32,000 nt of DNA from Aciduliprofundum boonei T469 (GCF_000025665.1 NC_013926.1:1454779-1486778); one strand, 5' to 3'. Counted from the stretch's first letter, positions 1,911 through 26,938 are shown. The notes: generated by a model from the sequence alone, not told the origin. Program-made: numbers and translations.

Positions 1911-3560
1911 TTATTTGAGCATGGGCATCCAGATGCCCTTCTCCTTAGCAGTTCTTATTGCTATCTCGTATCCCGCATCGGCGTGACGCACAACACCTAA
2001 GCCAGGATCATTGTGCAACACCCTTGCAAGTTTCTGCTCAGCAAGCTTCGTTCCATCCGCAACTATCACCATACCCGCATGCAAAGAGTAACCTATGCCA
2101 ACTCCACCTCCATGGTGGAAAGATACCCAAGTAGCACCGGAGGCCACATTGAGCATAGCGTTGAGAATTGGCCAATCTGCGATTGCCTCACTTCCATCTT
2201 TCATCTTCTCCGTCTCTCTATAAGGCGAGGCTACGCTTCCAGTGTCATGATGATCTCGGCCAATAGCTATGGGCGCATCCACCACTCCCTCGCGAACTAA
2301 TTCGTTGAATGCCAGTCCTGCTTTTTCTCTCTCTCCAAAATTGAGCCACAGGATTCTCGCAGGTAATCCCTGCCACTTCACATGCTCTTCCGCCTTATCT
2401 AACCACTGGATAACATGCTTATTCTCCGGGAACAATTTTCTTATTGCATTGTCAGTCTCAAATATATCCTCTGGGTTTCCGCTCAAAGCAACCCATCTAA
2501 AAGGCCCACTTCCTTCGGAGAACAATGGGCGAATATACTCAGGTACATACCCAGGAATCTTAAATGCATCCTCAACGCCAGCCTCCTTTGCCTGTGCCCT
2601 GATATTGTTTCCGTAATCAAATACCTTGGCTCCACGCTCTTTGAACCATACCATTGCGGGCACATGCTTGCGGAGAGACTTGCGTACTTCTTCAAGGTAC
2701 TTCTCAGGATCGTTTTCTCTCAATTCTGCTGCTTCCTCCACAGTATATCCAGCTGGAATGTATCCATTAAGCGGGTCATGAGCGGCAGTTTGATCTGTAA
2801 CAATATCTGGCACAATGCCTCTGCGCACAAGTTCTGGATAGACATCTGCAGCATTAGCAAGTAAACCTATACTTAATGGCTTTCCTTCTTTGAGGGCTTC
2901 ATCTTTCATCTTAAGCGCTTCATCCAAACTATCTGTCCAGGTATCCAAATATCCGCCTTTTAATCTCCGCTCTATGGCCCATTTATTAACCTCAACTATT
3001 ATCCCAACTCCGTTGTTCATTGTTATTGCAAGAGGCTGTGCTCCTCCCATCTCTCCCAATCCTGAGGAAAGAACCCACTTACCTGTCAAATCATGCTGTC
3101 CGAATTCTTTGCGCGCGACTGCATAGAGAGTCTCATAGGTTCCTTGAAGAATTCCCTGCGTTCCAATATAAATCCATGAGCCGGCGGTCATCTGTCCGTA
3201 CATTATTAATCCTCTTTCTTCTAACTCCCGGAAATATTCCCAAGTGGCCCATTTTGGAACAAGGTTCGAGTTTGCGATGAGAACACGGGGAGCCCATTCG
3301 TGAGTTTTGAAAACAGCAACGGGCTTTCCACTCTGCACAATAAGGGTCTCATCAGTTTCCATCTCTTTGAGAGTTTTTACAATTGCATCGAACGATTCCC
3401 AATTCCTCGCAGCACGACCAGTACCACCATAAACTATGAGATGTGCAGGATCCTTGGCCACTTCAGGGTCAAGATTATTCATAAGCAATCTCAATGGCGC
3501 CTCAGTTTGCCATGATTTTGCATTCAATTTTGTGCCTCTGGGGGCTCTAATTTCTCGCAT
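1911..3560 (-). CDS. hutU: Urocanate hydratase (urocanase), 549 aa
   Basis: Full-length urocanase-like sequence: [76 protein letters not shown]. The track start is GTG 3569; ATG 3560 (MREIRAPRG) is the start I prefer. Confidence 0.95.
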
Positions 3561-3582
3561 AATTTCCACATGAAATGAATAG

Positions 3583-3600
3583 ATAAATATTTTATTAAAG
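3583..3600. promoter_or_regulatory. Single AT-rich TATA-like box between divergent hutU and the yhbY-like gene
   Basis: ataaatattttattaaag is centred about 27 nt from the yhbY-like ATG (3618) and 22-31 nt from the hutU start candidates (3569/3560). No SD-like motif is present on either side. Confidence 0.35.
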
Positions 3601-3617
3601 GCCTCGATACTCTTTCT

Positions 3618-3839
3618 ATGGATATAAAAGCAACTGTGCAGATAGGCAAGGGAGGAATAACGGATGGCGTGAAAAGAGAGATAAAGGAGCAGTTAAAAAA
3701 GAGAAAGATAATCAAGATAAAATTCTTGCAAAACGCGGATAGAGAGAACTTCAAAGAAAAAATTGAAAAATTAGCAAAGGATGTGAATGCCGAAATTTTG
3801 GAGATTAGAGGATTCACTGCTGTTCTGAAGAAGAGATGA
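3618..3839 (+). CDS. YhbY/CRS1 (CRM-domain) RNA-binding protein, 73 aa
   Basis: [32 protein letters not shown]...[13 protein letters not shown] matches the YhbY pattern (GK.G.t..v...i...l..reliKvk ... iG....lyr). Confidence 0.75.
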
Positions 3840-4314
3840 GTTTCTCAATTTCCCTTTTCAATTCTTTGTAATTTTCCCTTATCCCTTGAACAATTACCTT
3901 AGTATCGCTTATGACAGGCATGAAATTCGTATCTCCATTCCATCTTGGCACAATGTGCACATGCAAATGCCCTTCTATGCCGGCCCCGGCAACTCTTCCA
4001 ATGTTCAGTCCTATGTTGAAGCCCTGAGGATTCATCGTCCTCTTTATAACCCTTACCATAAGTGCTGTGAGTGCGTGTACATCTTCCCATTCTTCCTCGC
4101 TTAAATCTTCAATCTCACCCACATGTCTGTAAGGTGCAACCATCACATGCCCAGGATTGTATGGATAATTGTTCATTATGACAAAAGCATGTTTGCCTCG
4201 ATAGAGAATTAGATTTTTCTCATCATCCCCATTGGGCAATTTGCAAAATATACATTCATCCATCTTCTCCATGCGGATATACTCAATTCTCCAAGGTGCC
4301 CATAGCTGTTGCAT
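3814..4314 (-). CDS. HIT-family nucleotide hydrolase/phosphorylase, 166 aa
   Basis: Histidine triad GHLHVHIVPRW, CIFC motif, and N-terminal LWAPWRIEYI as in the Ap4A-phosphorylase-like HIT branch. The track start is 4362. I prefer M17 (ATG 4314, MQQLWAPWR) because of the promoter geometry; 4362 remains possible. Confidence 0.88.
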   Translation of the reverse strand: MQQLWAPWRIEYIRMEKMDECIFCKLPNGDDEKNLILYRGKHAFVIMNNYPYNPGHVMVAPYRHVGEIEDLSEEEWEDVHALTALMVRVIKRTMNPQGFNIGLNIGRVAGAGIEGHLHVHIVPRWNGDTNFMPVISDTKVIVQGIRENYKELKREIEKLISSSEQQ

Positions 4315-8604: not shown

Positions 8605-9833
8605 CACTCCACCTCCAAAGTCAACTCTTTTATTTCCTTCTGTATTTTTTTCACTGGTAACCTAATTTTCAACATCTCGGAAGGTTTGACTACTGGATAT
8701 TTTATTTTATATCCTATATCCCCAAATTTTAGAGTGACATTTTCCTGTGGATTTTTCACTCTTGCATAAAAGATTACATTTTTTTCTCCGCTTATATAAT
8801 GGGGTACCACAAATCTCAGATTTCCCTCAATTTTTATCTTTATTTTTCGGGAAGATGGAAGGTTATTATCCACATAGTTTTTAGCAGAGAAAGCAGCTAA
8901 CTCACCCTGCTCAACCACATAGTCCACAAGGTCATTTATAATTAAAGAATTACCTGCAACAAAAATCCCTCTCACACTGGTTTCTAAATTCTCATCAACC
9001 ACAGGACCTCCTGTACGGGCGTCTATATCAATACCTATTTTTTCTAACAACTTAACACGAGGTACTAATCCTGCAGATATTATCACGGTATCGCATTCTA
9101 TATCAAATTCAGTACCTTCTACAGGTTCCAACTTATCGTTTACTTTAACTACTTTAACACTCTCAACTCTATTTTTACCTCTTATTTCTATGACTTTATG
9201 TGAGAGATATAATGGAATTGAAAAATCTTGGAGACATTGAATAATGTTTCTTGCTAAGCCTCCCGGATAAGGCATAAGCTCTATAACTGCCTTTACCTCA
9301 GCACCTTCCAAAGCAAATCTTCTCGCCATTATAAGCCCAACATCTCCAGATCCTACGATCACTATCTCCTTTCCAGGCATAATCCCATAAATATCCATCA
9401 TAGTTTGGGCTTCGCCTGCAGTGAACACCCCTGCCACTCTGTCCCCCACGATACCTATTTCAAATCTATGTCTTTCCCTCGCTCCCGACGCGTATATTAT
9501 ACTTTTAGTAAGCACTTCTTCTAACCCCTGTGGCGATACATATTTCACCCTTTTTAGTTCTTCCTCCACTGAAATATCAAGTACGGTTGCCTCTGTGATG
9601 TATTCAACATTTAAACTCCTGAATTTTTCTATGAGTTTATGAGCAAATTCTGGACCAGTTAAATCTTCTTTAAAATAGTGTAGACCGAATCCTGGATGAA
9701 TACATTGAGGTAATATTCCTCCAAGGTATTCCTTCTCATCTAAAAGCAAAACCTTGAGTCCCAATTCTTTGGCTTTTATGGATGCCGCTAATCCGGCAGG
9801 GCCTCCCCCTATCACCACTGTATCGTAAATCAT
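8604..9833 (-). CDS. NAD(P)/FAD-dependent pyridine-nucleotide-disulfide-type oxidoreductase, 409 aa
   Basis: Two dinucleotide-binding motifs: VVIGGGPAGLAAS and IVIVGSGDVGLIMA. ATGA overlap with the upstream gene at 9830-9833. Confidence 0.8.
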   Translation of the reverse strand: MIYDTVVIGGGPAGLAASIKAKELGLKVLLLDEKEYLGGILPQCIHPGFGLHYFKEDLTGPEFAHKLIEKFRSLNVEYITEATVLDISVEEELKRVKYVSPQGLEEVLTKSIIYASGARERHRFEIGIVGDRVAGVFTAGEAQTMMDIYGIMPGKEIVIVGSGDVGLIMARRFALEGAEVKAVIELMPYPGGLARNIIQCLQDFSIPLYLSHKVIEIRGKNRVESVKVVKVNDKLEPVEGTEFDIECDTVIISAGLVPRVKLLEKIGIDIDARTGGPVVDENLETSVRGIFVAGNSLIINDLVDYVVEQGELAAFSAKNYVDNNLPSSRKIKIKIEGNLRFVVPHYISGEKNVIFYARVKNPQENVTLKFGDIGYKIKYPVVKPSEMLKIRLPVKKIQKEIKELTLEVE

Positions 9834-11311
9834 CTCCCTCCCTCCTTTAAAAGTACCTTTACATCCCCTATACCTATTTCACTACCCTTACCTTTTAAGG
9901 TAATATTCCACATAGGTTGCTCATACTCTCGAGCAAGTATAGCCGCTATTTTAACCCTACAGAAACCCCCTTGGCAGGTACCCGTTGTGGCTTTAGTTCT
10001 AAATTTTATTGAATCTATGCTTGGTACCTTAACTCCTATTTTCTTCATTCTCTCTATGGCCTCTAGGATATCCCCCTCACTGACTTTATTACATTTGCAT
10101 ATAATTCTTCCATAAGCGCCGTTATTTTTTATTTTTTCATTTATCTCTTTGGAAGAAAGCATAAAGAAATGAGTTATCTCTTTCCTATAAGGATTCCAAT
10201 TTTTCTTCTCTCTTAGCTCTATTCCCAAATCTCTTTCAATTATTTCCTTAACTTCCATAGCAATGGCAGGGGCAGCTGTCAACCCTGGGGAGCGTATGCC
10301 ACCAACATTTATAAATCCATAAACCTCCTCCGCTTTTATTATAAAATCAGCATTTTTTGTTTCAGGTCTCAATCCAGCAAAAGTTCTTATCACCTTGCCC
10401 CTAGGGGGTAATTTGGGCCATAGCAGTTTGGCTTTGTTCCACACCTCCTCAAGACCCTCCTTTGTATTGGACAAATCTTCCTTATCCTCCTGATCTCTGG
10501 CATTTGGGCCTATCATGAGATGTCCAGATACCTCTGTGGTGACAACAACTCCTTTTGTCTTTTTTGTGGGTGCGGGAAATAGCACATGCTCTGGCTTTGG
10601 ACCGGCACTCTCGTCAAAAAGCCAGTACTCTCCTTTTCTAGGATAAATTTTAAAATAATCCAGGCCCGCCATTTTGGAAATCTCATCAGCGTACAAGCCA
10701 GCCGCATTTATTATTAAATCCCCTTCTATGAACCCATCTGGAACTTTAACACCCTTCACTGCCCCATTATCAACTTTGACTTCCTCAACAGGAGAATCAA
10801 AAATTATCTTTACTCCATTATCAACAGCATTCTCCGCTAAGGCAATAACCGCAGGAATTGGGGCTATTTGCCCAACACTAGGAATCCAGAGAGCCCCTTG
10901 CGAATTAGGGGATAAATTTAGTTCCATTTCTAAAAGTTCATCTCTATATATTATTCGTATATCTTTAACTCCATTTCTCTCTCCTCTTTTCAAGAGAATA
11001 TCAAGCTCTTTCATCTCATCATCATTCTTGGCAACTACCAAAGCTCCATTCCAAACAGATGGAATTTGAAGCTCTCTAACCCATTTTCGCCATATTTCAT
11101 TTCCTCTAACACACAACTTTGCCCTTACAGGATACTTATCTGGATCGTCATCATAACCTCCATGAATTAAGGCAGTGTTTGCCTTGCTTACACCCCAGCC
11201 CACATCCGATTTTCTCTCTATCACTGTAATTTTTAAATTATCATACTTGCTTAACTCTCTAGCAATACTCATTCCAGTTATTCCAGCACCTATTATTATG
11301 ACCTTGTGCAT
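9830..11311 (-). CDS. FAD-dependent oxidoreductase, GlpA-like (glycerol-3-phosphate dehydrogenase family) with C-terminal BFD-like [2Fe-2S] domain, 493 aa
   Basis: N-terminal VIIIGAGITGMSIAREL. C-terminal CKCNKVSEGDILEAI...TGTCQGGFC. SD-like AGGTGAG lies upstream of the ATG. Confidence 0.85.
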   Translation of the reverse strand: MHKVIIIGAGITGMSIARELSKYDNLKITVIERKSDVGWGVSKANTALIHGGYDDDPDKYPVRAKLCVRGNEIWRKWVRELQIPSVWNGALVVAKNDDEMKELDILLKRGERNGVKDIRIIYRDELLEMELNLSPNSQGALWIPSVGQIAPIPAVIALAENAVDNGVKIIFDSPVEEVKVDNGAVKGVKVPDGFIEGDLIINAAGLYADEISKMAGLDYFKIYPRKGEYWLFDESAGPKPEHVLFPAPTKKTKGVVVTTEVSGHLMIGPNARDQEDKEDLSNTKEGLEEVWNKAKLLWPKLPPRGKVIRTFAGLRPETKNADFIIKAEEVYGFINVGGIRSPGLTAAPAIAMEVKEIIERDLGIELREKKNWNPYRKEITHFFMLSSKEINEKIKNNGAYGRIICKCNKVSEGDILEAIERMKKIGVKVPSIDSIKFRTKATTGTCQGGFCRVKIAAILAREYEQPMWNITLKGKGSEIGIGDVKVLLKEGGR

Positions 11312-11593: not shown

Positions 11594-11678
11594 TGCGGGG
11601 GGCCGGATTCGAACCGGCGAACCCCTACGGGAGTGGATCTTGAGTCCACCGCCTTTGACCTGGCTCGGCAACCCCCGC
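11594..11678 (-). tRNA. tRNA-Leu (anticodon CAA), type II with long variable arm, CCA not encoded
   Basis: Hand-folded minus strand: GCGGGGG-TT-GCCGAGCCAGGTCAAAGGCG-GTGGA-CTCAAGA-TCCAC-TCCCGTAGGGGTTC-GCCGG-TTCGAAT-CCGGC-CCCCCGC-A. It has a 7-bp acceptor stem, 5-bp anticodon and T stems, and a GTTCGAATC T-loop. Confidence 0.95.
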
Positions 11679-18245: not shown

Positions 18246-20060
18246 ATGTATGGATATCATGGAAAAATAGTCAGAATAAACTTATCCACGGGAAAAATAT
18301 CCGTGGAAAATATTGATGAAAATTTTGCAAAAAAATGGCTGGGTACAAGGGGCTTTGGAATACATACCCTTCTAAAAGAGATTGATCCAAAGGTGGACCC
18401 ATTAAGCGAGGAAAATAAAATAATCTATTCCACAGGTCCCTTGACTGGAACTGCAGCGCCAACTGGTGGGAGGTATATGGTCATAACCAAGAGTCCTCTC
18501 ACAGGGTATATCGCAATGGCAAACTCTGGTGGTTTCTTCGGTGCAGAACTCAAGTTTGCTGGTTGGGATTATCTCATAGTGGAAGGAAAGAGCGAGAATC
18601 CTGTGTACATCTCAATAAAAGATGATAATATAGAGATAAAGGATGCCTCACATATTTGGGGCAAGAAAGTTAGCGAGACGGAGAAAATTCTATTGGAGGA
18701 ATTTGGAGACAAGCATGCTCAGATTGCTTCAATAGGCCCAGCTGGTGAGAACCTTGTGAAATTCTCCGCCATTATGAACAATGGGCATCGAGCAGCAGCC
18801 AGAGGTGGTGTAGGAGCAGTTATGGGAAGTAAGAAGTTAAAAGCGATCATAGTAAGGGGCCATAATAAAACGCCTTTAGCAGATAGACAGAAATTCATAA
18901 GCGTTGTTAAGGAGAAAATTAATAAATTGAAAAATGACCCCGTGGCTGGCAGCGGTTTGCCAAAGTACGGAACTGCTGTGCTTGTAAATATCATAAATCA
19001 AAATGGATTGTACCCTACGAGAAATTTCAGAACAGGAGTGTTTGAATATGCGGAAGAGCAGAGCGGAGAGGCAATGGCAGCCAAGTACTTGAAAAGGAAT
19101 AAGCCCTGCTATGCCTGCCCAATAGGGTGCGGGAGAGTCAATGTTATAAGCTCTGTGGGCGAGACAGAGGGGCCAGAGTACGAAAGTTTATGGGCACTGG
19201 GTGCGCATCTGGGCATAAACGATTTAGGAAGTATCATTGAGGCAAACCATATATGCGATGAAATGGGTCTCGATACAATATCCACTGGAGGTACTTTAGC
19301 AACTGCGATGGAGTTATACGACAAGGGTATTTTGAAGCAGGAAGATTTGGGAGATGCACCCCCATTCAGATTTGGAAACACAGAGGTGATACATTATTAC
19401 ATCGAGAAGATAGCCAAGCGCGAGGGATTTGGTGCAAAGTTAGCGGAAGGAGGATACAGACTTGCGGAAAGCTACGGATACACAGACGCATTTATGGGAG
19501 TGAAGAAGCAAGAGCTTCCTGCCTATGATCCAAGGGGAGCAGAAGGCCATGGACTGGGATATGCAACAGATAATCGAGGAGGAGATCACATAAAAGCGTA
19601 TATGATTAGCCCTGAAATTCTTGGTTATCCTGTTAAGATGGACCCGCATGATATAAGCGATGAGAAGGTGAAAATGCTCATTCTATTCCAAAACTTGACC
19701 GCTTTGATAGATGCTGCGGGGCTTTGCATATTCACTACATTTGGCTTAGGAGCTGATGATTATCGGGATATGCTCAATGCTGCTCTAGGTTGGGATTTAA
19801 GCACGGAAGATTATCTAAAGATTGGCGAGCGTATATGGAATGCTGAGCGTTTATTCAATTTAAAAGCAGGATTAACCACGGAAGAGGATACACTTCCCAA
19901 GCGCTTAACCGAGGAGCCAATGCCCGAAGGACCGAATAAGGGGCATGTGGTGCACTTGAAAGAAATGCTTCCACGGTACTATGCTCTGAGAGGATGGAAT
20001 GCTCGGGGAGAGATAACAAAGGAGAAGATAAAGGAGCTCGACTTGGAAGAATACTTCTAA
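18246..20060 (+). CDS. aor: Tungsten-containing aldehyde:ferredoxin oxidoreductase, 604 aa
   Basis: It is collinear over its full length with the Pyrococcus furiosus AOR sequence as I remember it: MYG..G...R.NLSTG, GPLTGT.APTGGRY, KSPLTG, CYACPIGCGR ([4Fe-4S] ligands), ELPAYDPRG, GLGYAT.NRGG.H. A strong SD, GGAGGAGGT, lies at 18231-18239. Confidence 0.95.
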   Translation: MYGYHGKIVRINLSTGKISVENIDENFAKKWLGTRGFGIHTLLKEIDPKVDPLSEENKIIYSTGPLTGTAAPTGGRYMVITKSPLTGYIAMANSGGFFGAELKFAGWDYLIVEGKSENPVYISIKDDNIEIKDASHIWGKKVSETEKILLEEFGDKHAQIASIGPAGENLVKFSAIMNNGHRAAARGGVGAVMGSKKLKAIIVRGHNKTPLADRQKFISVVKEKINKLKNDPVAGSGLPKYGTAVLVNIINQNGLYPTRNFRTGVFEYAEEQSGEAMAAKYLKRNKPCYACPIGCGRVNVISSVGETEGPEYESLWALGAHLGINDLGSIIEANHICDEMGLDTISTGGTLATAMELYDKGILKQEDLGDAPPFRFGNTEVIHYYIEKIAKREGFGAKLAEGGYRLAESYGYTDAFMGVKKQELPAYDPRGAEGHGLGYATDNRGGDHIKAYMISPEILGYPVKMDPHDISDEKVKMLILFQNLTALIDAAGLCIFTTFGLGADDYRDMLNAALGWDLSTEDYLKIGERIWNAERLFNLKAGLTTEEDTLPKRLTEEPMPEGPNKGHVVHLKEMLPRYYALRGWNARGEITKEKIKELDLEEYF

Positions 20061-20075
20061 TTTTTTTCTTTTTTT
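20061..20075 (+). terminator. Oligo-T tract (T7-C-T7) directly after the aor stop
   Basis: tttttttcttttttt begins at the base after TAA (20058-20060). A further T5 lies at 20082-20086, just before the next ATG. Confidence 0.35.
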
Positions 20076-20086
20076 GGTCGATTTTT

Positions 20087-20338
20087 ATGCCAAAGGTCAA
20101 GTTCTTTGCAACTCTCAGGGAAATTACGGGGAAGAGAGAAGAAATCATAGAAGGAGATAATGTGGGGGATGTACTTAAAGTTCTTTACGAAGAGTATGGA
20201 GAAGAATTTGAAAAAGAACTAAAGGAGAGAAGTATGATTTTGGTAAACGGAAAAAATATAGAACACTTGGAGGGTTTGAAAACAAAAGTAAGCGAGGAAG
20301 ATACAATAAGCATATTCCCACCAGCAGGAGGAGGATAG
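20087..20338 (+). CDS. MoaD/ThiS-family ubiquitin-like small protein ending in Gly-Gly, 83 aa
   Basis: MPKVKFFATLREITGKREEII...VNGKNIE...VSEEDTISIFPPAGGG-stop is a beta-grasp sulfur-carrier pattern. The track ORF (19994) begins inside aor; I moved the start to ATG 20087. Confidence 0.8.
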   Translation: MPKVKFFATLREITGKREEIIEGDNVGDVLKVLYEEYGEEFEKELKERSMILVNGKNIEHLEGLKTKVSEEDTISIFPPAGGG

Positions 20339-21457
20339 ATGCATACTTTCAATTTTGATGGAGCCGAGATATACATTCCTGAGAGAGCGGATATGCAGTA
20401 TCTCTTTGTGGAAATAACAAACAGGTGCAATTTAAAATGTGAGATGTGCTTCAAGCAGTATTGGGAAGATGATGAGGGAGATATGCCCTACAAACTATTT
20501 TTGAAAATTCTCAATGACGCTCAGGAATTCCCCAACCTCAAAATGTTATATTTTGGAGGAATCGGTGAACCAACTGTACATCCAGATTTTATGCGAATGA
20601 TCGAAGAAGTAAAGAGTAGAGAAATTGGTGTAGGGATATCTACCAACGGGTTCTTGTTGACTCAAGAAAGGATGGAAAGGCTTGTAGAGCTAGGTGTGGA
20701 CCTAATTTACATCTCCCTGGATTCTATACCTGTTCAACCAACAGATATTGGTCATATAATGCCTGGAGTTACCGTGGATCGGCTAAAAAGATTAGCAGAG
20801 ATAAAAAATAGAAAAGGCAGTGAAATACCTCATATAGGAGTCGAAGTTGTGGTAACTAAAGAGAATTACAAGCTTTTGGGGAAAATTGCAGAGTACTTGG
20901 CAAATTATGATATAAATTCATTACTGCTTTCAAATCTGATACCCATAACAGAGGAGCATTCAAACCAGATAGTTTACGATGGAAATGTGAATATAGAACC
21001 TTACCTGGACGAACTATACAGAAACTCATACTCAGGATTTCTTCTTAGAGTTCCTGAATTTAAGCTTCGCACCGAGAGACATTGCGATTTTGTGGAAAAT
21101 AAAGTTGCAGTTGTGAGATGGGATGGTGAGATTAGCCCTTGCTATAGATTCTTGCATACATACCCCGAATATGTGTTTGGCAGAGAGAAGAAAGTGTATT
21201 CACATTCTTTTGGTAATGTAAAGGATAAATCATTAAAAGAAATTTGGACTTCAAGGGATTACACATGGTTCAGATTTGCCGTTAAAAATTCTTTGTTCCC
21301 GTCCTGCACAGATTGCCCCCTAGTAAATTCATGCAGTTTCGTACAAGATACAAAAACAGATTGCTGGGGAAATGAACCAAGTTGCGGAGATTGCCTATGG
21401 TGGAGGAAAATAGCGCAGTGTCCAATACCGATAGAGATGAATGGAAAATTTTGGTAG
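20339..21457 (+). CDS. Radical SAM/SPASM-domain enzyme, AOR-associated (tungsten-cofactor-oxidoreductase maturase type, MoaA-like 'cmo'), 372 aa
   Basis: EITNRCNLKCEMCF (CX3CX2C), GGIGEPTVHPDF. The C-terminal Cys cluster is CYRF...CTDCPLVNSCSF...CWG...CGDCLW. The ATG follows the MoaD-like TAG with no gap. Confidence 0.8.
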   Translation: MHTFNFDGAEIYIPERADMQYLFVEITNRCNLKCEMCFKQYWEDDEGDMPYKLFLKILNDAQEFPNLKMLYFGGIGEPTVHPDFMRMIEEVKSREIGVGISTNGFLLTQERMERLVELGVDLIYISLDSIPVQPTDIGHIMPGVTVDRLKRLAEIKNRKGSEIPHIGVEVVVTKENYKLLGKIAEYLANYDINSLLLSNLIPITEEHSNQIVYDGNVNIEPYLDELYRNSYSGFLLRVPEFKLRTERHCDFVENKVAVVRWDGEISPCYRFLHTYPEYVFGREKKVYSHSFGNVKDKSLKEIWTSRDYTWFRFAVKNSLFPSCTDCPLVNSCSFVQDTKTDCWGNEPSCGDCLWWRKIAQCPIPIEMNGKFW

Positions 21458-21459
21458 AA

Positions 21460-22461
21460 TTAACTTTTCAATTTCCATATTTCCTCTGGCTTAAATACTC
21501 CCTTTTCGGTGATTATCCCTGTTATGTATTTTGCAGGCGTAACATCAAATGCTGGATTCCTAGCATGACTTTCTTGAGGCGCAATTCTACACTCTCTGCA
21601 AAATAGAACCTCTTCCTCTCTCCTCTCTTCTATAGGGATCTGATCTCCGTTTTCCAAAGAGAAATCAAACGTGCTTATGGGTGCAGCAACATAGAAAGGT
21701 ATGCCGTTTTCCTTAGCTACCACCGCTTTCTCGTAAGTACCTATCTTATTTGCCACATCGCCATTGCTCGTGATTCTATCTGCTCCCACAATGACCATGT
21801 CTATTTCTCCCTTACGCATAAAATAGCCTGCTGCATTATCTGCGATAATTGCATGCTCAATACCCTCTTGTACCATCTCCCAAGCGGTTAAGCGTGCACC
21901 CTGCAATCTTGGGCGCGTTTCATCAACCCACACAAATATCTTTTTCCCATTTCTGTGTGCCTTGCGAATAGGTGCCGTTGCGGTACCCCAATCTCCAACT
22001 GCTAAAGCTCCTGCGTTGCAATGCGTCAATATTCTGTAGCCATCTTTTATCAATTTCTCCCCATACTCGCCAATCTTCTCACATCTTCCAATTATGTCAT
22101 TTGCATATTCTTCCGCCTTTTTCACAGGGTCCTCTCCAGAATTTATTGCATCCATCATACTGCGGAGAGCGTAGAAAAGATCATGGGCCGTAGGCCTGGT
22201 ATTCCTTAGAATCTCAAACGCTTCATCCACATTTCTTCCCTGTAAAGATGCCTGAGCCATCCCATAGGCAGCGGTTATACCGATGGCAGGTGCCCCTCGA
22301 ACAACCATTTCCTTTATGGCATATGCCACTTCCTCCGTTGTTTTTGCCTCAAATATCTCAAAATTGGCAGGCAACTGTCGCTGATCTATAAGCTTTACAA
22401 TCCCATCTTCAAACCAAACCGCACGCATCTCCTTAGTGCCATCCTCACTTTTTATTCTCAT
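21460..22461 (-). CDS. eIF-2B alpha/beta/delta-like sugar-phosphate isomerase (methylthioribose-1-P isomerase or ribose-1,5-bisphosphate isomerase), 333 aa
   Basis: IDQRQLP..FE......EVA.AIKEMVVRGAPAIG, LTHCNAGALA, VWVDETRPRLQGARLTAWE, VIVGADRI..NGDVANKIGTY. The start is moved to ATG 22461 (MRIKSEDG). The two activities cannot be told apart by eye. Confidence 0.85.
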   Translation of the reverse strand: MRIKSEDGTKEMRAVWFEDGIVKLIDQRQLPANFEIFEAKTTEEVAYAIKEMVVRGAPAIGITAAYGMAQASLQGRNVDEAFEILRNTRPTAHDLFYALRSMMDAINSGEDPVKKAEEYANDIIGRCEKIGEYGEKLIKDGYRILTHCNAGALAVGDWGTATAPIRKAHRNGKKIFVWVDETRPRLQGARLTAWEMVQEGIEHAIIADNAAGYFMRKGEIDMVIVGADRITSNGDVANKIGTYEKAVVAKENGIPFYVAAPISTFDFSLENGDQIPIEERREEEVLFCRECRIAPQESHARNPAFDVTPAKYITGIITEKGVFKPEEIWKLKS

Positions 22462-22547
22462 TAAATCACCAGCAGTGTAATATTTTGAATATTTATAAAT
22501 TTGCTTACACACAAATTTTATATACATTCTTTCACTTATATCTTTCA

Positions 22548-22796
22548 ATGGATTCAAAAGACCTCATTGATTTGAAAATCGAGAAAACCCTATACCCATT
22601 ATTTGGAAACCTCAGTGAAATTATCGTTGAAGTCAACAAAAAAAAGGTGAATAGAAACGGCCTTAATGAAAAGGAGTATGCAAAAATTATGAGTGAAGAG
22701 ATAAAAAGATTTATCGAAAGATTTGCAGGGGAGGAGCTTGCAGACAGGACATATAGAGAGCTTTTAAATTCTTTAAAATTTGAGATAGGTGAGTAG
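22548..22796 (+). CDS. Hypothetical small charged, probably helical protein, 82 aa, translationally coupled to the KaiC-like gene
   Basis: MDSKDLIDLKIEKTLYPLFGNLSEIIVEVNKKK...EEIKRFIERFAGEELADRTYRELLNSLKFEIGE. I recognise no family. The TATA-like ttttatata (22516-22524) lies about 28 nt upstream of ATG 22548. The stop (22794-22796) is 1 nt before the KaiC-like ATG. Confidence 0.5.
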   Translation: MDSKDLIDLKIEKTLYPLFGNLSEIIVEVNKKKVNRNGLNEKEYAKIMSEEIKRFIERFAGEELADRTYRELLNSLKFEIGE

Positions 22797-22797
22797 G

Positions 22798-23508
22798 ATG
22801 GAGTTTATAAACACCTATGTTAAGGGGCTTGATGAGCGAATAGAAGGTGGAATCCCGAAGGGCTCTGTAATTTTAATTTCTGGGCCTACTGGCAGTATGA
22901 AGTCCAGCTTCAGTTTCTACATTGCCTACAATTATCTAAAGGACAAAAAAGAGGGAAATGTTGTGTACATTTCCTTAGAACAGAGCAGGGAGAGTTTGAT
23001 AAATCAAATGGTAAATTTGGGAATGGATATAGATAAACTGCCAAAAAATTGCGAATTCAATATATTTGATTGGGGATTGGTTAGAAAGATAGTAAAAGAT
23101 GCAGGAAAGCATGAAAAGGTGAACTGGCTAGATACTATAATAAATCCAGTTAAAGAGTTTGCAAAGAACAAAAAATTGGATTTCGTGATTTTGGACTCGC
23201 TTAACGCCCTTTATGCTATCTCTAACTTGGAGAATCCAAGAAACCAATTATTCTTCCTCTTTGAAGCCATGAGAGAATTAGGTGCCACAACCCTGGCCAT
23301 ATCAGAAACAACTTACAACTCTATGCAATTTGGAACTTACGATGTTGAAGGCTTTTTGGCTGATAGCATAATCCATCTTTCTATGGAAAGGATAGGAAGA
23401 ACATTAGGGAGGTACATATCAATAATAAAAATAAGGGGAGTTAAACACTCTACAGATTACTATCCGCTCTTGGTAGATAAGAAGGGATTTAGAATTATAT
23501 CCCACTGA
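22798..23508 (+). CDS. Single-domain KaiC-like/RecA-superfamily ATPase with a non-canonical Walker A, 236 aa
   Basis: GLDERIEGGIPKGSVILISGPTGSMKSSF (Walker A region), VVYISLEQS, LDFVILDSLNAL (Walker B strand), SIIKIRGVKHS...Y. Alternative start GTG 22789. Confidence 0.85.
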   Translation: MEFINTYVKGLDERIEGGIPKGSVILISGPTGSMKSSFSFYIAYNYLKDKKEGNVVYISLEQSRESLINQMVNLGMDIDKLPKNCEFNIFDWGLVRKIVKDAGKHEKVNWLDTIINPVKEFAKNKKLDFVILDSLNALYAISNLENPRNQLFFLFEAMRELGATTLAISETTYNSMQFGTYDVEGFLADSIIHLSMERIGRTLGRYISIIKIRGVKHSTDYYPLLVDKKGFRIISH

Positions 23509-26500
23509 TTTTCTTTTTAACTTCTCGCAGTTTATCTTCCAAACCCATCTCTTCATAAAGCTCTATAGCTTTATTTATCTTGTTTTTCCATTCTTTTTTA
23601 TTCTTCTTTAAGAGACACAGTCCGTAATAGTAATATGTCTTAGCCAAATAGATTTTGTAATCCATCTCACCGTACTCCTTTATGGCACTTTCAAATACAT
23701 CTTTTGAAAATTTATCATCTCTCTGACATATAGAATAAGCCTTGAGCACCTCTATATATATTGAGTTGATCACATCATTTATTTTCTTGGCATTCTCCTT
23801 GGCTTTATCCAGCCATTTTAATACCATATCCCAGTTGCCCAAAGCGATATCATATTCTGCATTAACTAGATAATAATCCATTATCAAATAACTCTCCTGT
23901 ACATTCTTTTTCAGAGAATGACTTAACTCGATATACTTCTGCGCTTTTTTAAATTCCTCTAAATGCACATAAGCCCTTGCCATATAAAGGTATATGGAGA
24001 ATAGAATTGTAGTATAGGAATACATCTTTGCAATTTCCATAGCTCGTGAATAAAAGTCAATGGCGTCCATATACTTACCCATCTCCTCATTTATCTCTCC
24101 CAGAGATACCAATCTCTCGCATATACCATACTTGTTATTTAATTTAATTGATATTTCTAAGCTTTTACTTATATGTTCTAAAGCGAGAGAGTAATTTCCA
24201 TGTCTTGAATAGAGAACTGCTATATTATTATGAAATGCCTCCAACAATCTATCGTTGCCAAGCTTTTCAATTATCTCTATAGCCCTTTTGTGATATTCTT
24301 CAGCTTTTTTTAAATCACCCATTTTCTCATAAGTTACTCCTATATTGTTATAGGCTCTTGATAGATATGTTAAATTTCCCATCTTCTCGCTGATCTCAAG
24401 ATACTTTAAGAGATAAGTTAATGCCTCCTCGTAATTATTTAGATGGTTATTTATCACACCTATGACATTATAAGTATCGGCTATCTCCCTTATGTCTCCG
24501 CTCTCCTCTGCAAGCCTAAGAGCTTTCTCCGCATACTTCAGTGCTTTTTTGTAATTTCCCTCCATATAATATACGGAAGCTATATTTCTCGTAGCCTTAA
24601 CTTCATCAATCTTGCTTTCATATCTTTGAGCATAAGCGAGATATTTTCCTAATTTCTCAAGGGATTCCTTAAAATCCCCAGTTTCCCACTCTATTATGCC
24701 AAGTTCTCCAATTATTCTCCCCTTATCCATACCCTTTGCAATCTTAAGGTACTCGTTTAAAATTTCTTTAGCCCTATTTAGCTCACCCATCAACCTATAG
24801 CACATCCCCATTTGAGTGCCAAAATACACAATATCTTCAGGTAGATACTCTGTAGCCCTAGAAAACATCGCTGCTGCTTTTTTGTATTCCCCCACAGAAA
24901 CATACCACTCTCCAAGATCCCTGTACAATTCTCCTATGAGCTCAACTTTTCCATATTTCTCCGCTATTTCAAGAGCCTTTTGGAGATAATCTATGGCGCT
25001 CTTGAAAGCCATCATTTTAGCGGATTCTTCTGCAGCGATTCTTAAAAATCCGACTGCTCGCTCGTCTCTGGCCATATAATAATGATAAGCTGCCATAAAA
25101 AGATCGTTATTTCTTTCTGCCCAGTTCCCAATTTTCCTATGAAAATTAATTCTTGTATCACGAGATATACCCTTGTATATTATTTCCCTGTAGATGGGGT
25201 AAATAAATCTTAGTTTTTTATTTTCCAATATTACAAATATGTTGGAAGGATCCTCCAAGAATTGCTTATGCTCAGGATAAAAAGATTCTACAATACTCAA
25301 AGGGATTTCGTATCCAACCACAGATAAAAACCTAATAAAACTCAAGACATGCTCTTTAAGCTTATCTACTTGCAGCTCCACACTCTCTCTTATCGTCTCC
25401 GGCAGTGAACTTTTGTTTCCTTGCATTATGTATTTTGCCATATTTATTGCCAGTAGAGGATTTCCCTCACTAATCTCATAAATGGATCCAACATCACCTC
25501 TGTATCCCATGCCATAAAGTATATCCTCAATATCCTTCTCTTTTAAAGGCTTTAATCTTAATACCTTAGCGGTGGGCTCATCTTGGATATTTGTGAGAAT
25601 CTCCAGAAGATTCTTATTTTCAACAATATCCTCATTTCTATAAGTGAGGATTATCATTATCCTGCCTTTTCCTATATTCCTAGCAAGATAATATATAAGT
25701 TCTAAAGAATTACTATCTATCCATTGGATATCCTCAAATACCAAAATCATAGGCTTTCTCCTAGAGTTGTAATCTAAGAAATTGTGGATAACATCATAAA
25801 ACTTTACAGGGCCCTCTACTATATCCATCCCCCCATATATTCTATCCTTACCTTCATCTATCAAATCAAAGAAGAACTCTATATCTTTAGAGATGGGTGT
25901 CCTCTCAACTAAATACACCCTCCTTCCATTTTTTCTAGCGTAATCTCTAACCGCCTTTAGCCATATATAAACCCTTCTCTTATCATTATAATGGACTATG
26001 GTGTTAAGACATTCTATTGCAATATCCATCCCATTATCTATTGCCTCCGCAATTTTCTCAAATATTTCAAAATCCAAACGGGTAGGGTGGATGCCTTGTG
26101 GGGATACATAAAGAGTGTTTCCTCCATCTTTTTTATTTGTTAATCTTAAAACATTTTTTTCTCTGACCCTATCAGTAAGAATTATGGTAGGGGGCGTTAT
26201 TTTATCCTCCCATTCAATTAATATTTTTTCATCAAACAGGCTTAGCAGATGCCTCTCCTTCTCAGAGAGGTACTCTATTTTTCCGGAGATTATAATTAAA
26301 TGCCTATTAGAAGCTAAAGAGCGCAAAGTGTGAAGAAAATCCACAACCCTATCTATCCCTGCAATATAAACTAAAAAGTTCAAATCTTCTATGTAAACCA
26401 ATTTTCTCTCACTACTGTTTAAAAATTCGTGTAAATACATTACGAACTCAAACTCGAGATTATACGGATTTATGCTCTCTTTATCCGTTTTCGTCTCTGT

Positions 26501-26938
26501 AAGCCATATGGCATCACTTCGGCTTGGTTGCCTTATTGTGAAATACAATCCTTTCATTCTCTTGCTGAGTTCTTTATATAATCTATATCCTCCTCCGTAT
26601 CCTATTTCATCTACAAATACCATCTTATTCTCTTTATACAATTTTTTTGATATATCTCTTATCTTTCTCTTCCATTCCTTTCTCTTTATCTCGCTCAAGG
26701 TCCCAAAACTACCAAGGGCTTGAGATATGGCATTATAGGGTACATACTGGGTTGATTGCTCACACCTAGTTTTGAGAATTTGAACATCCTTATTATCTTC
26801 CAAAAATTTATCAATAAGATAACTCTTTCCTATACCGGCAGGACCTTCCAGAAGTATAACTTTACCCTTGCCTCTCTTAACCTCATTAAGATACATCTTT
26901 AGATTGTGGAGTTCTTTCTCCCTGCCGACAAAGAGCAT
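23495..26938 (-). CDS. STAND-type (AAA_16-like) NTPase interrupted by two DUF835-like modules, with a long C-terminal TPR array, 1147 aa
   Basis: - aa 1-100: FVGREKEL...LLEGPAGIGKSYL...YVPYNAISQAL.
- aa about 105-245 and about 250-365: DUF835-like modules.
- aa 396-411: PMILVFEDIQWIDSNS (Walker B).
- aa 490-496: SEGNPLL.
- aa about 640-1147: TPR-like repeats (GNYKKALKYAEKALRLAEE, NNYEEALTYLLKYLEISEK, GDLKKAEEYHKRAIEIIEK ...). Confidence 0.85.
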   Translation of the reverse strand: MLFVGREKELHNLKMYLNEVKRGKGKVILLEGPAGIGKSYLIDKFLEDNKDVQILKTRCEQSTQYVPYNAISQALGSFGTLSEIKRKEWKRKIRDISKKLYKENKMVFVDEIGYGGGYRLYKELSKRMKGLYFTIRQPSRSDAIWLTETKTDKESINPYNLEFEFVMYLHEFLNSSERKLVYIEDLNFLVYIAGIDRVVDFLHTLRSLASNRHLIIISGKIEYLSEKERHLLSLFDEKILIEWEDKITPPTIILTDRVREKNVLRLTNKKDGGNTLYVSPQGIHPTRLDFEIFEKIAEAIDNGMDIAIECLNTIVHYNDKRRVYIWLKAVRDYARKNGRRVYLVERTPISKDIEFFFDLIDEGKDRIYGGMDIVEGPVKFYDVIHNFLDYNSRRKPMILVFEDIQWIDSNSLELIYYLARNIGKGRIMIILTYRNEDIVENKNLLEILTNIQDEPTAKVLRLKPLKEKDIEDILYGMGYRGDVGSIYEISEGNPLLAINMAKYIMQGNKSSLPETIRESVELQVDKLKEHVLSFIRFLSVVGYEIPLSIVESFYPEHKQFLEDPSNIFVILENKKLRFIYPIYREIIYKGISRDTRINFHRKIGNWAERNNDLFMAAYHYYMARDERAVGFLRIAAEESAKMMAFKSAIDYLQKALEIAEKYGKVELIGELYRDLGEWYVSVGEYKKAAAMFSRATEYLPEDIVYFGTQMGMCYRLMGELNRAKEILNEYLKIAKGMDKGRIIGELGIIEWETGDFKESLEKLGKYLAYAQRYESKIDEVKATRNIASVYYMEGNYKKALKYAEKALRLAEESGDIREIADTYNVIGVINNHLNNYEEALTYLLKYLEISEKMGNLTYLSRAYNNIGVTYEKMGDLKKAEEYHKRAIEIIEKLGNDRLLEAFHNNIAVLYSRHGNYSLALEHISKSLEISIKLNNKYGICERLVSLGEINEEMGKYMDAIDFYSRAMEIAKMYSYTTILFSIYLYMARAYVHLEEFKKAQKYIELSHSLKKNVQESYLIMDYYLVNAEYDIALGNWDMVLKWLDKAKENAKKINDVINSIYIEVLKAYSICQRDDKFSKDVFESAIKEYGEMDYKIYLAKTYYYYGLCLLKKNKKEWKNKINKAIELYEEMGLEDKLREVKKKISGI

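Follow-up and report, generated by a model that had tools for sequence, protein, structure and literature searches.

Which proteins does a small archaeal KaiC-like ATPase work with, and what can its gene neighbourhood tell us about them? The question is raised by a locus of Aciduliprofundum boonei T469, where the gene of a single-domain KaiC-like ATPase lies between a small open reading frame (ORF) and a large convergent gene encoding a STAND NTPase with tetratricopeptide repeats (TPR). Makarova, Galperin and Koonin are said to have proposed in 2017 that archaeal KaiC-like ATPases, including inactivated KaiC domains, are signal transduction hubs. To our knowledge, this idea draws almost wholly on comparative genomics, and very few such proteins have been studied experimentally. 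We analysed a 32,000-nucleotide (nt) stretch of the A. boonei genome (NC_013926.1:1454779-1486778; hereafter the window) together with related loci. We found that the conserved link joins the small-protein/KaiC pair to a protein bearing inactivated KaiC domains (iKaiC, also known as DUF835), and not to the STAND/TPR protein as such.

The small ORF of 82 amino acids (aa) occupies positions 22548-22796 of the plus strand (ATG at 22548, TAG at 22794-22796). One nucleotide further on, the KaiC-like gene begins (22798-23508, plus strand, 236 aa; ATG at 22798, TGA at 23506-23508), whose product belongs to PF06745. The STAND gene (23495-26938, minus strand, 1147 aa) runs towards it, and both genes overlap tail-to-tail by 14 nt (23495-23508). 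In its product, an AAA_16 domain is split by a nested tandem iKaiC insert and followed by a helical arm and, at the C-terminus, by a TPR array. The original prediction, made from the DNA sequence of the window, had described these three genes as a tight unit, and our ORF calls bore out its coordinates, the 1-nt junction and the 14-nt tail overlap. The start codons chosen there were also correct, since homologues begin at the equivalent methionine and a GGTGA motif precedes the KaiC ATG. Pfam identified the flanking genes as an IF-2B/MtnA-type isomerase and an AdoHcy hydrolase (AhcY), that is, as the housekeeping genes they had been taken for.

The source lineage of the window, Aciduliprofundum, is a deep-sea vent archaeon and belongs to DHVE2 within the Thermoplasmatota. 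In a scan with one genome per species, the KaiC-like protein was 97% and 93% identical to its counterparts in two metagenome-assembled genomes (MAGs) of Aciduliprofundum, and the locus is also found in the complete genome of strain MAR08-339. Comparison with further loci (numbered L001 onwards) revealed two regularities. Wherever the small gene is present (21 distinct loci), its stop codon lies 1-20 nt ahead of the KaiC start; and the gene after KaiC carries DUF835 in 16 of the 20 distinct loci where it is visible. The DUF835 neighbour comes in three architectures and two orientations. In the window, L001-3, L022 and L029 (and partially in L006) it is nested in a convergent STAND protein; 7/7 of these STAND-type loci retain the tail overlap, with a length of 14 or 20 nt. 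In L004, L007-10, L014 and L015, the slot is filled by a free 203-aa DUF835 protein encoded on the same strand (Pfam E-values of 1e-36 to 1e-37). This gene is followed by one for a GvpD/KaiC-like ATPase wherever the contig is long enough (all but L004) and then by a receiver-domain gene, confirmed in L014. The third architecture, found in a lineage with 47% KaiC identity (L012 and L021), is a convergent gene encoding a HisKA_7TM protein with two DUF835 units.

In loci where the STAND gene is not beside the pair, the position after KaiC is mostly taken by a free iKaiC protein. A metagenome scan with an alignment of the free DUF835 proteins yielded five loci, two of them duplicates of loci already known. 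Within approximately 250 kb of flanking DNA, DUF835 away from the KaiC pair was seen only in loci that had been fetched by a STAND-DUF835 or DUF835 query (L025-L031, L034-L036). In a neighbour-joining tree of the KaiC proteins, which carries no support values, the STAND-type loci are basal in DHVE2 and the free-DUF835 type is nested within. Two KaiC relatives with 48-49% identity (L016 and L018) have neither the small gene nor DUF835 and lie in an unrelated aconitase context; we therefore set them apart as a different subfamily. The finding of a DUF835 neighbour in three independent architectures and two orientations argues for a functional link between KaiC and iKaiC. Thus, of the proposal that the trio is conserved as a neighbourhood, the small-protein/KaiC pair (21/21) and the DUF835 neighbour (16/20) held, and the adjacency of the STAND gene proved to be confined to a single clade.

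What is the DUF835 part of these proteins? Searched with the Pfam model (PF05763), the whole large protein of the window scored 64.9 bits (cut-off 33.1) in two stretches. Unit 1 (aa 103-246; 26201-26632, minus strand) was matched on the isolated segment with 47.8 bits (E=1.7e-12) and by our own profile hidden Markov model (HMM) with E=6e-51; its Walker-B-like strand reads KLVYIEDLNFL. Unit 2 (aa ~252-375; 25814-26185, minus strand) is a more degenerate, N-terminally reduced DUF835-like repeat that stays under the 33.1-bit cut-off (26.5 bits, E=5.9e-6). When the DUF835 alignment was compared with the KaiC subfamily by hhalign, 106 columns were aligned (E=7.3e-5, probability 62%) and KLVYIEDLNFLVY paired with LDFVILDSLNALY, just as the original prediction had it. 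In addition, the NCBIfam FlaH model matched aa 164-227 of the STAND protein (E=9e-5). The likeness that had been noticed between the DUF835 motif and the Walker B region of the neighbouring ATPase hence exceeds chance.

We then modelled the insert (aa 95-380) with AlphaFold from an alignment of 16 sequences and obtained a pLDDT of 89.8 and a pTM of 0.87. The best PDB matches of this model in Foldseek were KaiC, FlaH and PH0284 (2dr3), with E-values of 5e-5 to 9e-4 and a probability of 1.00. KaiC (8jon_A, E=5e-5) was aligned over its full length with about 390 columns, from which it follows that both iKaiC units match the CI and CII domains of KaiC. FlaH (4yds, E=6.6e-5) was aligned over 166 columns with an rmsd of 4.3 Å. 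At the P-loop position, unit 1 of the window reads GYGGGYR and lacks the Lys-Ser/Thr, while its relatives carry unrelated residues there and no conserved GK[ST]. That is, DUF835 is a degenerate, P-loop-less KaiC-fold domain. The suggestion that the inserts are degenerate RecA/KaiC-fold units is upheld by the agreement of hhalign, AlphaFold and Foldseek. It is correct but not new, since a KaiC-like domain that is inactivated and joined to REC and PAS domains has already been published under the name 'DUF835 (iKaiC)' (Galperin, Makarova, Wolf, Koonin 2018, PMC5847659, citing Makarova et al. 2017). Such fusions to REC/PAS sensor domains were described from Methanomicrobia and Thermoplasmata, where DUF835 is the output domain (PMC5847659).

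The tandem module of the window also occurs elsewhere, as the C-terminal part of a 7TM receptor and within long coiled-coil proteins, and thus behaves as a mobile module. The latter proteins (P0143, P0146 and P0150) are coiled-coil-rich and measure 1014-1473 aa; P0146 and P0150 end in a Cys-rich, zinc-finger-like motif (CxxC...CxxC...HxxC...CxxC).

The neighbouring 236-aa protein is a single-domain member of PF06745 (E=8.8e-45; 153.3 bits, cut-off 26.6), its aa 4-235 covering profile positions 1-228 of 231. It stays under every NCBIfam equivalog cut-off, including those of the circadian KaiC models (NF006799 / TIGR02655; 119.8 bits versus 408 and 70.8 versus 546) and of ArlH (72.4 bits versus 215). 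Next to the ATPase gene we found neither kaiB nor kaiA, the adjacent partner being all-alpha; the remaining window was not searched for kaiB. The Walker A motif, GPTGSMKS (aa 29-36; 22882-22905), is non-canonical when compared to GxxxxGK[ST]. Throughout the KaiC subfamily, methionine (tyrosine in some relatives) stands for the glycine before the lysine, and Lys35 and Ser36 are retained; GK is kept in the most distant relative only. The catalytic Glu61, after strand 2, is conserved within the clade that has the small partner, and the Walker B residue Asp133 as well as Lys211 and Arg213 are invariant in 15 sequences.

The product of the small ORF matched no Pfam or NCBIfam family, and 14 relatives were likewise without a Pfam match. 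A profile built from 14 relatives detected 47 homologous clusters among 5.8 billion proteins, each of 74-104 aa, unannotated and unfused. AlphaFold predicted an all-alpha bundle of four to five helices for the 82-aa protein (pLDDT 92.4). Given the 47 clusters and this model quality, we regard the ORF as a real gene. Against the sequences of the PDB, the profile gave chance-level matches only (for example TIM and adenylate kinase), and the best Foldseek match of the model in the PDB had an E-value of 0.75; the top 50 matches listed included neither KaiB nor KaiA nor a death-fold. In the contexts that we read, no member of the small family was seen away from KaiC.

A Shine-Dalgarno-like GGTGA (22788-22792, plus strand) lies inside the end of the small ORF, 5 nt ahead of the KaiC ATG, and is kept in the stop region of the small ORF in nearly all lineages. 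This motif indicates translational coupling, and judging by the sequence the two genes look like a translationally coupled operon of invariable partners. About 28 nt upstream of the small-ORF ATG, we read a TATA-like element, TTTTATATA (22516-22524, plus strand), as a candidate archaeal promoter; its position would fit a leaderless transcript of the small ORF and KaiC. The isomerase ORF on the other side, as called (21460-22557, minus strand; TTG start, 365 aa), is too long. Its homologues measure 333-337 aa and begin with MRIK, which places the true start at approximately 22461 instead of 22557. With this correction, an 86-bp divergent intergenic region emerges that holds TATA-like elements at 22490-22499 and 22516-22524.

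The third protein of the locus gave 83.4 bits with AAA_16 (cut-off 32.6). However, its NTPase domain is not contiguous. The N-terminal part (aa 3-90; 26669-26932, minus strand) covers AAA_16 profile positions 2-95 and bears the canonical Walker A motif GPAGIGKS, and the C-terminal part (aa 379-430; 25649-25804, minus strand) covers positions 115-167 and bears the Walker B motif MILVFEDIQWID. The two parts are separated by an insert of about 285 aa that comprises one full and one reduced iKaiC unit. The TPR array, a sensor or scaffold region, spans aa ~640-1140 (23519-25021, minus strand) and was matched by TPR_12 in six stretches (E=5.8e-57) and by TPR_MalT (E=8.6e-21).

This nested architecture is rare. 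When 1.84 billion cluster representatives were searched exhaustively with HMMER, only 13 proteins matched aa 1-475 in one stretch, and in the remaining matches the Walker A and Walker B pieces were matched separately, as in ordinary AAA_16 proteins. The 13 nested-type proteins measure 1117-1161 aa and are 61-32% identical. Walker A (GPAGIGKS) and Walker B (hhhhFEDIQWxD) are kept in 13/13, and by these motifs the STAND NTPase looks active. We found no N-terminal effector domain in the STAND protein and no nuclease, protease or other effector. Since an N-terminal effector is missing, the iKaiC insert is the obvious candidate for the output of this protein.

On balance, we lean slightly towards the reading that iKaiC is a docking or transmitter domain that functionally couples different sensors to the KaiC-like ATPase; the specific geometry of a KaiC-iKaiC contact we hold with less confidence than the coupling. 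A physical interaction between KaiC and iKaiC, the direction of signalling and the cellular output are what we infer from the comparisons above. In DHVE2, the locus would then represent a signalling module of the KaiC type whose core is fixed and whose sensor can be exchanged. Its core would be the two-gene operon of the 82-aa helical protein and a single-domain KaiC-like ATPase with a derived P-loop (GxxGSMKS), which retains the lysine, the catalytic glutamate, the Walker B aspartate and the Lys/Arg finger positions. The exchangeable part would be a protein with inactivated KaiC domains, here a STAND NTPase with two such units between its Walker motifs. These units have the fold of a RecA/KaiC subunit and would be unable to bind or hydrolyse ATP. 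On this view, they could meet the KaiC-like ATPase at subunit interfaces of the RecA type. Such a contact could cap, seed or poison the KaiC-like oligomer. In this way, the cycle of ATP hydrolysis or phosphorylation in the KaiC-like protein might be tied to the state of the STAND/TPR sensor (ligand-driven nucleotide exchange and oligomerization). The small helical protein may be a permanent subunit of the ATPase or its regulator, comparable in role to KaiB or to the alpha-helical partners proposed for other archaeal KaiCs. Sensors that use the iKaiC plug would be the STAND/TPR protein here, and 7TM receptors, REC and PAS proteins elsewhere.

A more elaborate form of the coupling, which we consider unlikely and put forward tentatively, is a hybrid signalosome of STAND and KaiC proteins, in which the nested tandem iKaiC mimics a two-domain KaiC protomer. 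A trigger sensed by the TPR array would cause the STAND protein to oligomerize as in the apoptosome or MalT, and the iKaiC pairs would thereby form a pseudo-KaiC ring. This ring could template, cap or sequester a hexamer of the KaiC-like ATPase together with its 82-aa subunit. In this tentative picture, 7TM receptors, receiver domains and free adaptors could all address one KaiC hub through a common iKaiC plug, and iKaiC-KaiC docking would be a general principle of archaeal signal transmission, comparable to His-Asp phosphotransfer.

Several observations weigh against functional coupling through iKaiC. The sample of loci is small, consists mainly of MAG contigs and was seeded on KaiC, and the hhalign probability for DUF835 versus KaiC is just 62%. 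In four loci (L011, L020, L023 and L024), the pair has no neighbouring DUF835. The more distant STAND-DUF835 homologues (33-38% identity) of L025, L027, L030 and L031 lie apart from KaiC: in L025, a KaiC/free-DUF835 pair lies 3.3 kb from the STAND homologue, and in L027, L030 and L031 no KaiC was found inside the flanks that were read. The adjacency of the STAND gene, moreover, arose once and is accompanied by conserved housekeeping flanks, and may therefore reflect neutral synteny for this gene. Synteny in L001-3 and L022 extends over the entire block, with MtnA, AhcY, an aldehyde:ferredoxin oxidoreductase and an MFS transporter, and is thus uninformative on function; because the MtnA and AhcY flanks are conserved in the same clade, the adjacency of the trio is not independent evidence either. 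We had considered conservation of the trio everywhere and rejected it, as distant STAND homologues lie away from KaiC. By the same token, the three genes are not a 'self-contained cassette', as the original prediction had called them, with the STAND protein at its centre: the trio occurs in one syntenic clade only, and distant STAND-DUF835 genes are not beside KaiC.

In a rival explanation, the STAND/TPR protein is an independent signal-transduction NTPase of the MalT/AfsR type, in which iKaiC acts only intramolecularly; its gene would have come to be inherited beside the small-protein/KaiC operon in one clade by chance, and the KaiC pair would have other partners. The confinement of the trio to an Aciduliprofundum-type block with MtnA and AhcY would follow from neutral synteny, as would the location of the four more distant STAND-DUF835 homologues elsewhere, and in two assemblies the KaiC and STAND genes are found on separate contigs (L009 with L027, L023 with L031). 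However, in those DHVE2 loci where pair and STAND gene are apart, the slot is held by a free DUF835 protein, with L023 as the one exception; a third DUF835 architecture fills this slot in a distant lineage, and the overlap of 14-20 nt is still present at 41% STAND identity. We judge this explanation rather unlikely. In L023 itself, a cryptic DUF835 in the downstream genes was ruled out, their products resembling membrane proteins.

Two loci without DUF835 point in another direction. In L020 and L024, which belong to one Thermoplasmata lineage, a gene for an XPD-type (DEAD_2/HBB) helicase begins 4 nt after the KaiC-like gene (L020, 4707-6650; L024, 1341-3290), and in L011 an RFC-like AAA+ gene follows KaiC. 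Together with weak RadA/RadB/DnaB profile matches of the KaiC-like protein, these contexts would suit an accessory role in DNA transactions, with the pair as a RecA-paralogue factor like archaeal RadC/Ral and DUF835 as inactive subunits as in Rad55-Rad57 heteromers. But the XPD and RFC contexts are single lineages, the partners in most loci are of the sensor type (7TM receptor, STAND/TPR, REC), and the best family matches of the ATPase are KaiC and ArlH, not RadA/RadB, which makes such a role distinctly improbable. An antiviral function is hardly to be expected at all. The layout of a STAND NTPase with a C-terminal TPR sensor does recall Avs, and the KaiC pair would then belong to a defence island. 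PADLOC gave weak matches of mad8 to the KaiC-like protein (aa 18-156, E=5e-6) and to the STAND protein (aa 24-294, E=4e-4), yet no PADLOC family was reached at a meaningful score, the other matches were to generic TPR models, and the mad8 match (MADS system) to both proteins probably reflects their shared RecA/KaiC-like fold. In addition, no nuclease, protease or other effector domain is present, the flanks are housekeeping genes in stable synteny with nothing mobile nearby, and the GC content is just slightly under that of the neighbouring genes.

Some further features of the compared loci and of the window deserve mention. In sister DHVE2 genomes, the pair forms part of a larger 'KaiC island' (L014, 1969-9114; same layout in L009, L010 and L015). 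In one part of it lie the genes for a second KaiC paralogue of canonical type, for a Zn-ribbon protein and for a protein of 538 aa whose N-terminus is of the archaellin type (PF01917, E=2e-19). The small-protein, KaiC and free-DUF835 genes, a GvpD/KaiC-like ATPase of 457 aa and a receiver domain then follow in the direction opposite to the archaellin-like gene. The archaellin-like gene and the second KaiC paralogue hint at the control of a surface structure in the sister genomes; the window has nothing comparable. The most divergent syntenic relative, L029, has a 239-aa gene without Pfam match between AhcY and STAND (3159-3878) and a GAF-domain gene between MtnA and a radical-SAM gene (9486-9929). 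Elsewhere in the window, positions 18246-21457 (plus strand) encode a tungsten-type aldehyde:ferredoxin oxidoreductase, a ThiS/MoaD-like 84-aa protein and a radical-SAM/SPASM protein, which are kept in relatives and probably form a cofactor-maturation cluster. A tRNA and Rfam scan of the window found tRNA-Leu(CAA) (11594-11678, minus strand), far from the locus, as the sole RNA gene.

How much of this is new? The hub concept, the iKaiC identity of DUF835 and the idea of a small helical KaiC partner have been published before. In the literature we covered, to which Makarova et al. 2017 and its tables did not belong, the small-protein family, the GSMKS P-loop, the repeated occurrence of iKaiC genes after this KaiC subfamily and the tandem iKaiC nested in a STAND protein are apparently new, an assessment that is provisional. 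The locus offers a compact, biochemically tractable system of one small ATPase, one obligate 82-aa partner and a 285-aa iKaiC module that can be expressed alone, and nature provides swap variants of this module in its free, 7TM-fused and STAND-nested forms. If iKaiC docks onto active KaiC-like ATPases, the hub hypothesis would gain a mechanism and the role of the widespread DUF835 would be explained. The nested architecture would, in turn, give STAND NTPases a new type of output.

Among known systems, the module agrees with the archaeal KaiC hub proposal (PMC5847659) in that a single-domain KaiC-like ATPase is linked to variable input and output proteins. It differs from that proposal in that iKaiC is here a tandem pair nested in the NTPase domain of a STAND/TPR protein, and in that an unannotated helical protein of 82 aa invariably accompanies the ATPase. 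Such partners have a precedent: in gene pairs of the KaiC-like ATPase arCOG01174 and the alpha-helical, 'DEATH-like' arCOG03758, the latter was proposed to take the place of KaiB as the second component (Makarova, Koonin, Albers 2016, PMC4858521), and there, as here, a small all-alpha protein is encoded with a KaiC-like ATPase. The archaellin-like gene beside the pair in sister DHVE2 loci likewise recalls the link to type IV pili made in the same work. The model of our small protein is a bundle of four to five helices, for which the top 50 matches listed contained no death-fold (best E=0.75).

With cyanobacterial KaiABC, the locus shares the KaiC fold of the RecA superfamily, a small partner encoded directly next to kaiC, and a tandem iKaiC that aligns over both KaiC domains. 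In contrast to KaiABC, the ATPase has a single domain (119.8 versus 408 bits), the partner is all-alpha and not thioredoxin-like, and the adjacent gene is neither kaiA nor kaiB. A closer parallel for docking is ArlH (FlaH), a single-domain KaiC-like protein that docks onto another ATPase ring (ArlI), and among single-domain structures, FlaH (4yds) matches the iKaiC unit best. But the ATPase is no ArlH by score (72.4 bits versus 215), and the window, with MtnA and AhcY as flanks of the locus, holds no archaellum genes. The large protein resembles TPR-containing STAND NTPases of the MalT, AfsR, Avs and Apaf-1 type in its AAA_16 domain with Walker A and B, its helical arm and its C-terminal TPR array; unlike them, it lacks an N-terminal effector and has its NTPase domain split by the 285-aa tandem iKaiC module. 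The template for the proposed KaiC-iKaiC contact is found in Rad55-Rad57, the Rad51 paralogues and RadA/RadB, where an active RecA-fold ATPase is combined with a paralogue that lacks the catalytic motifs. Those heteromers act on DNA, whereas here no DNA link is evident in this genome and the partners are sensors.

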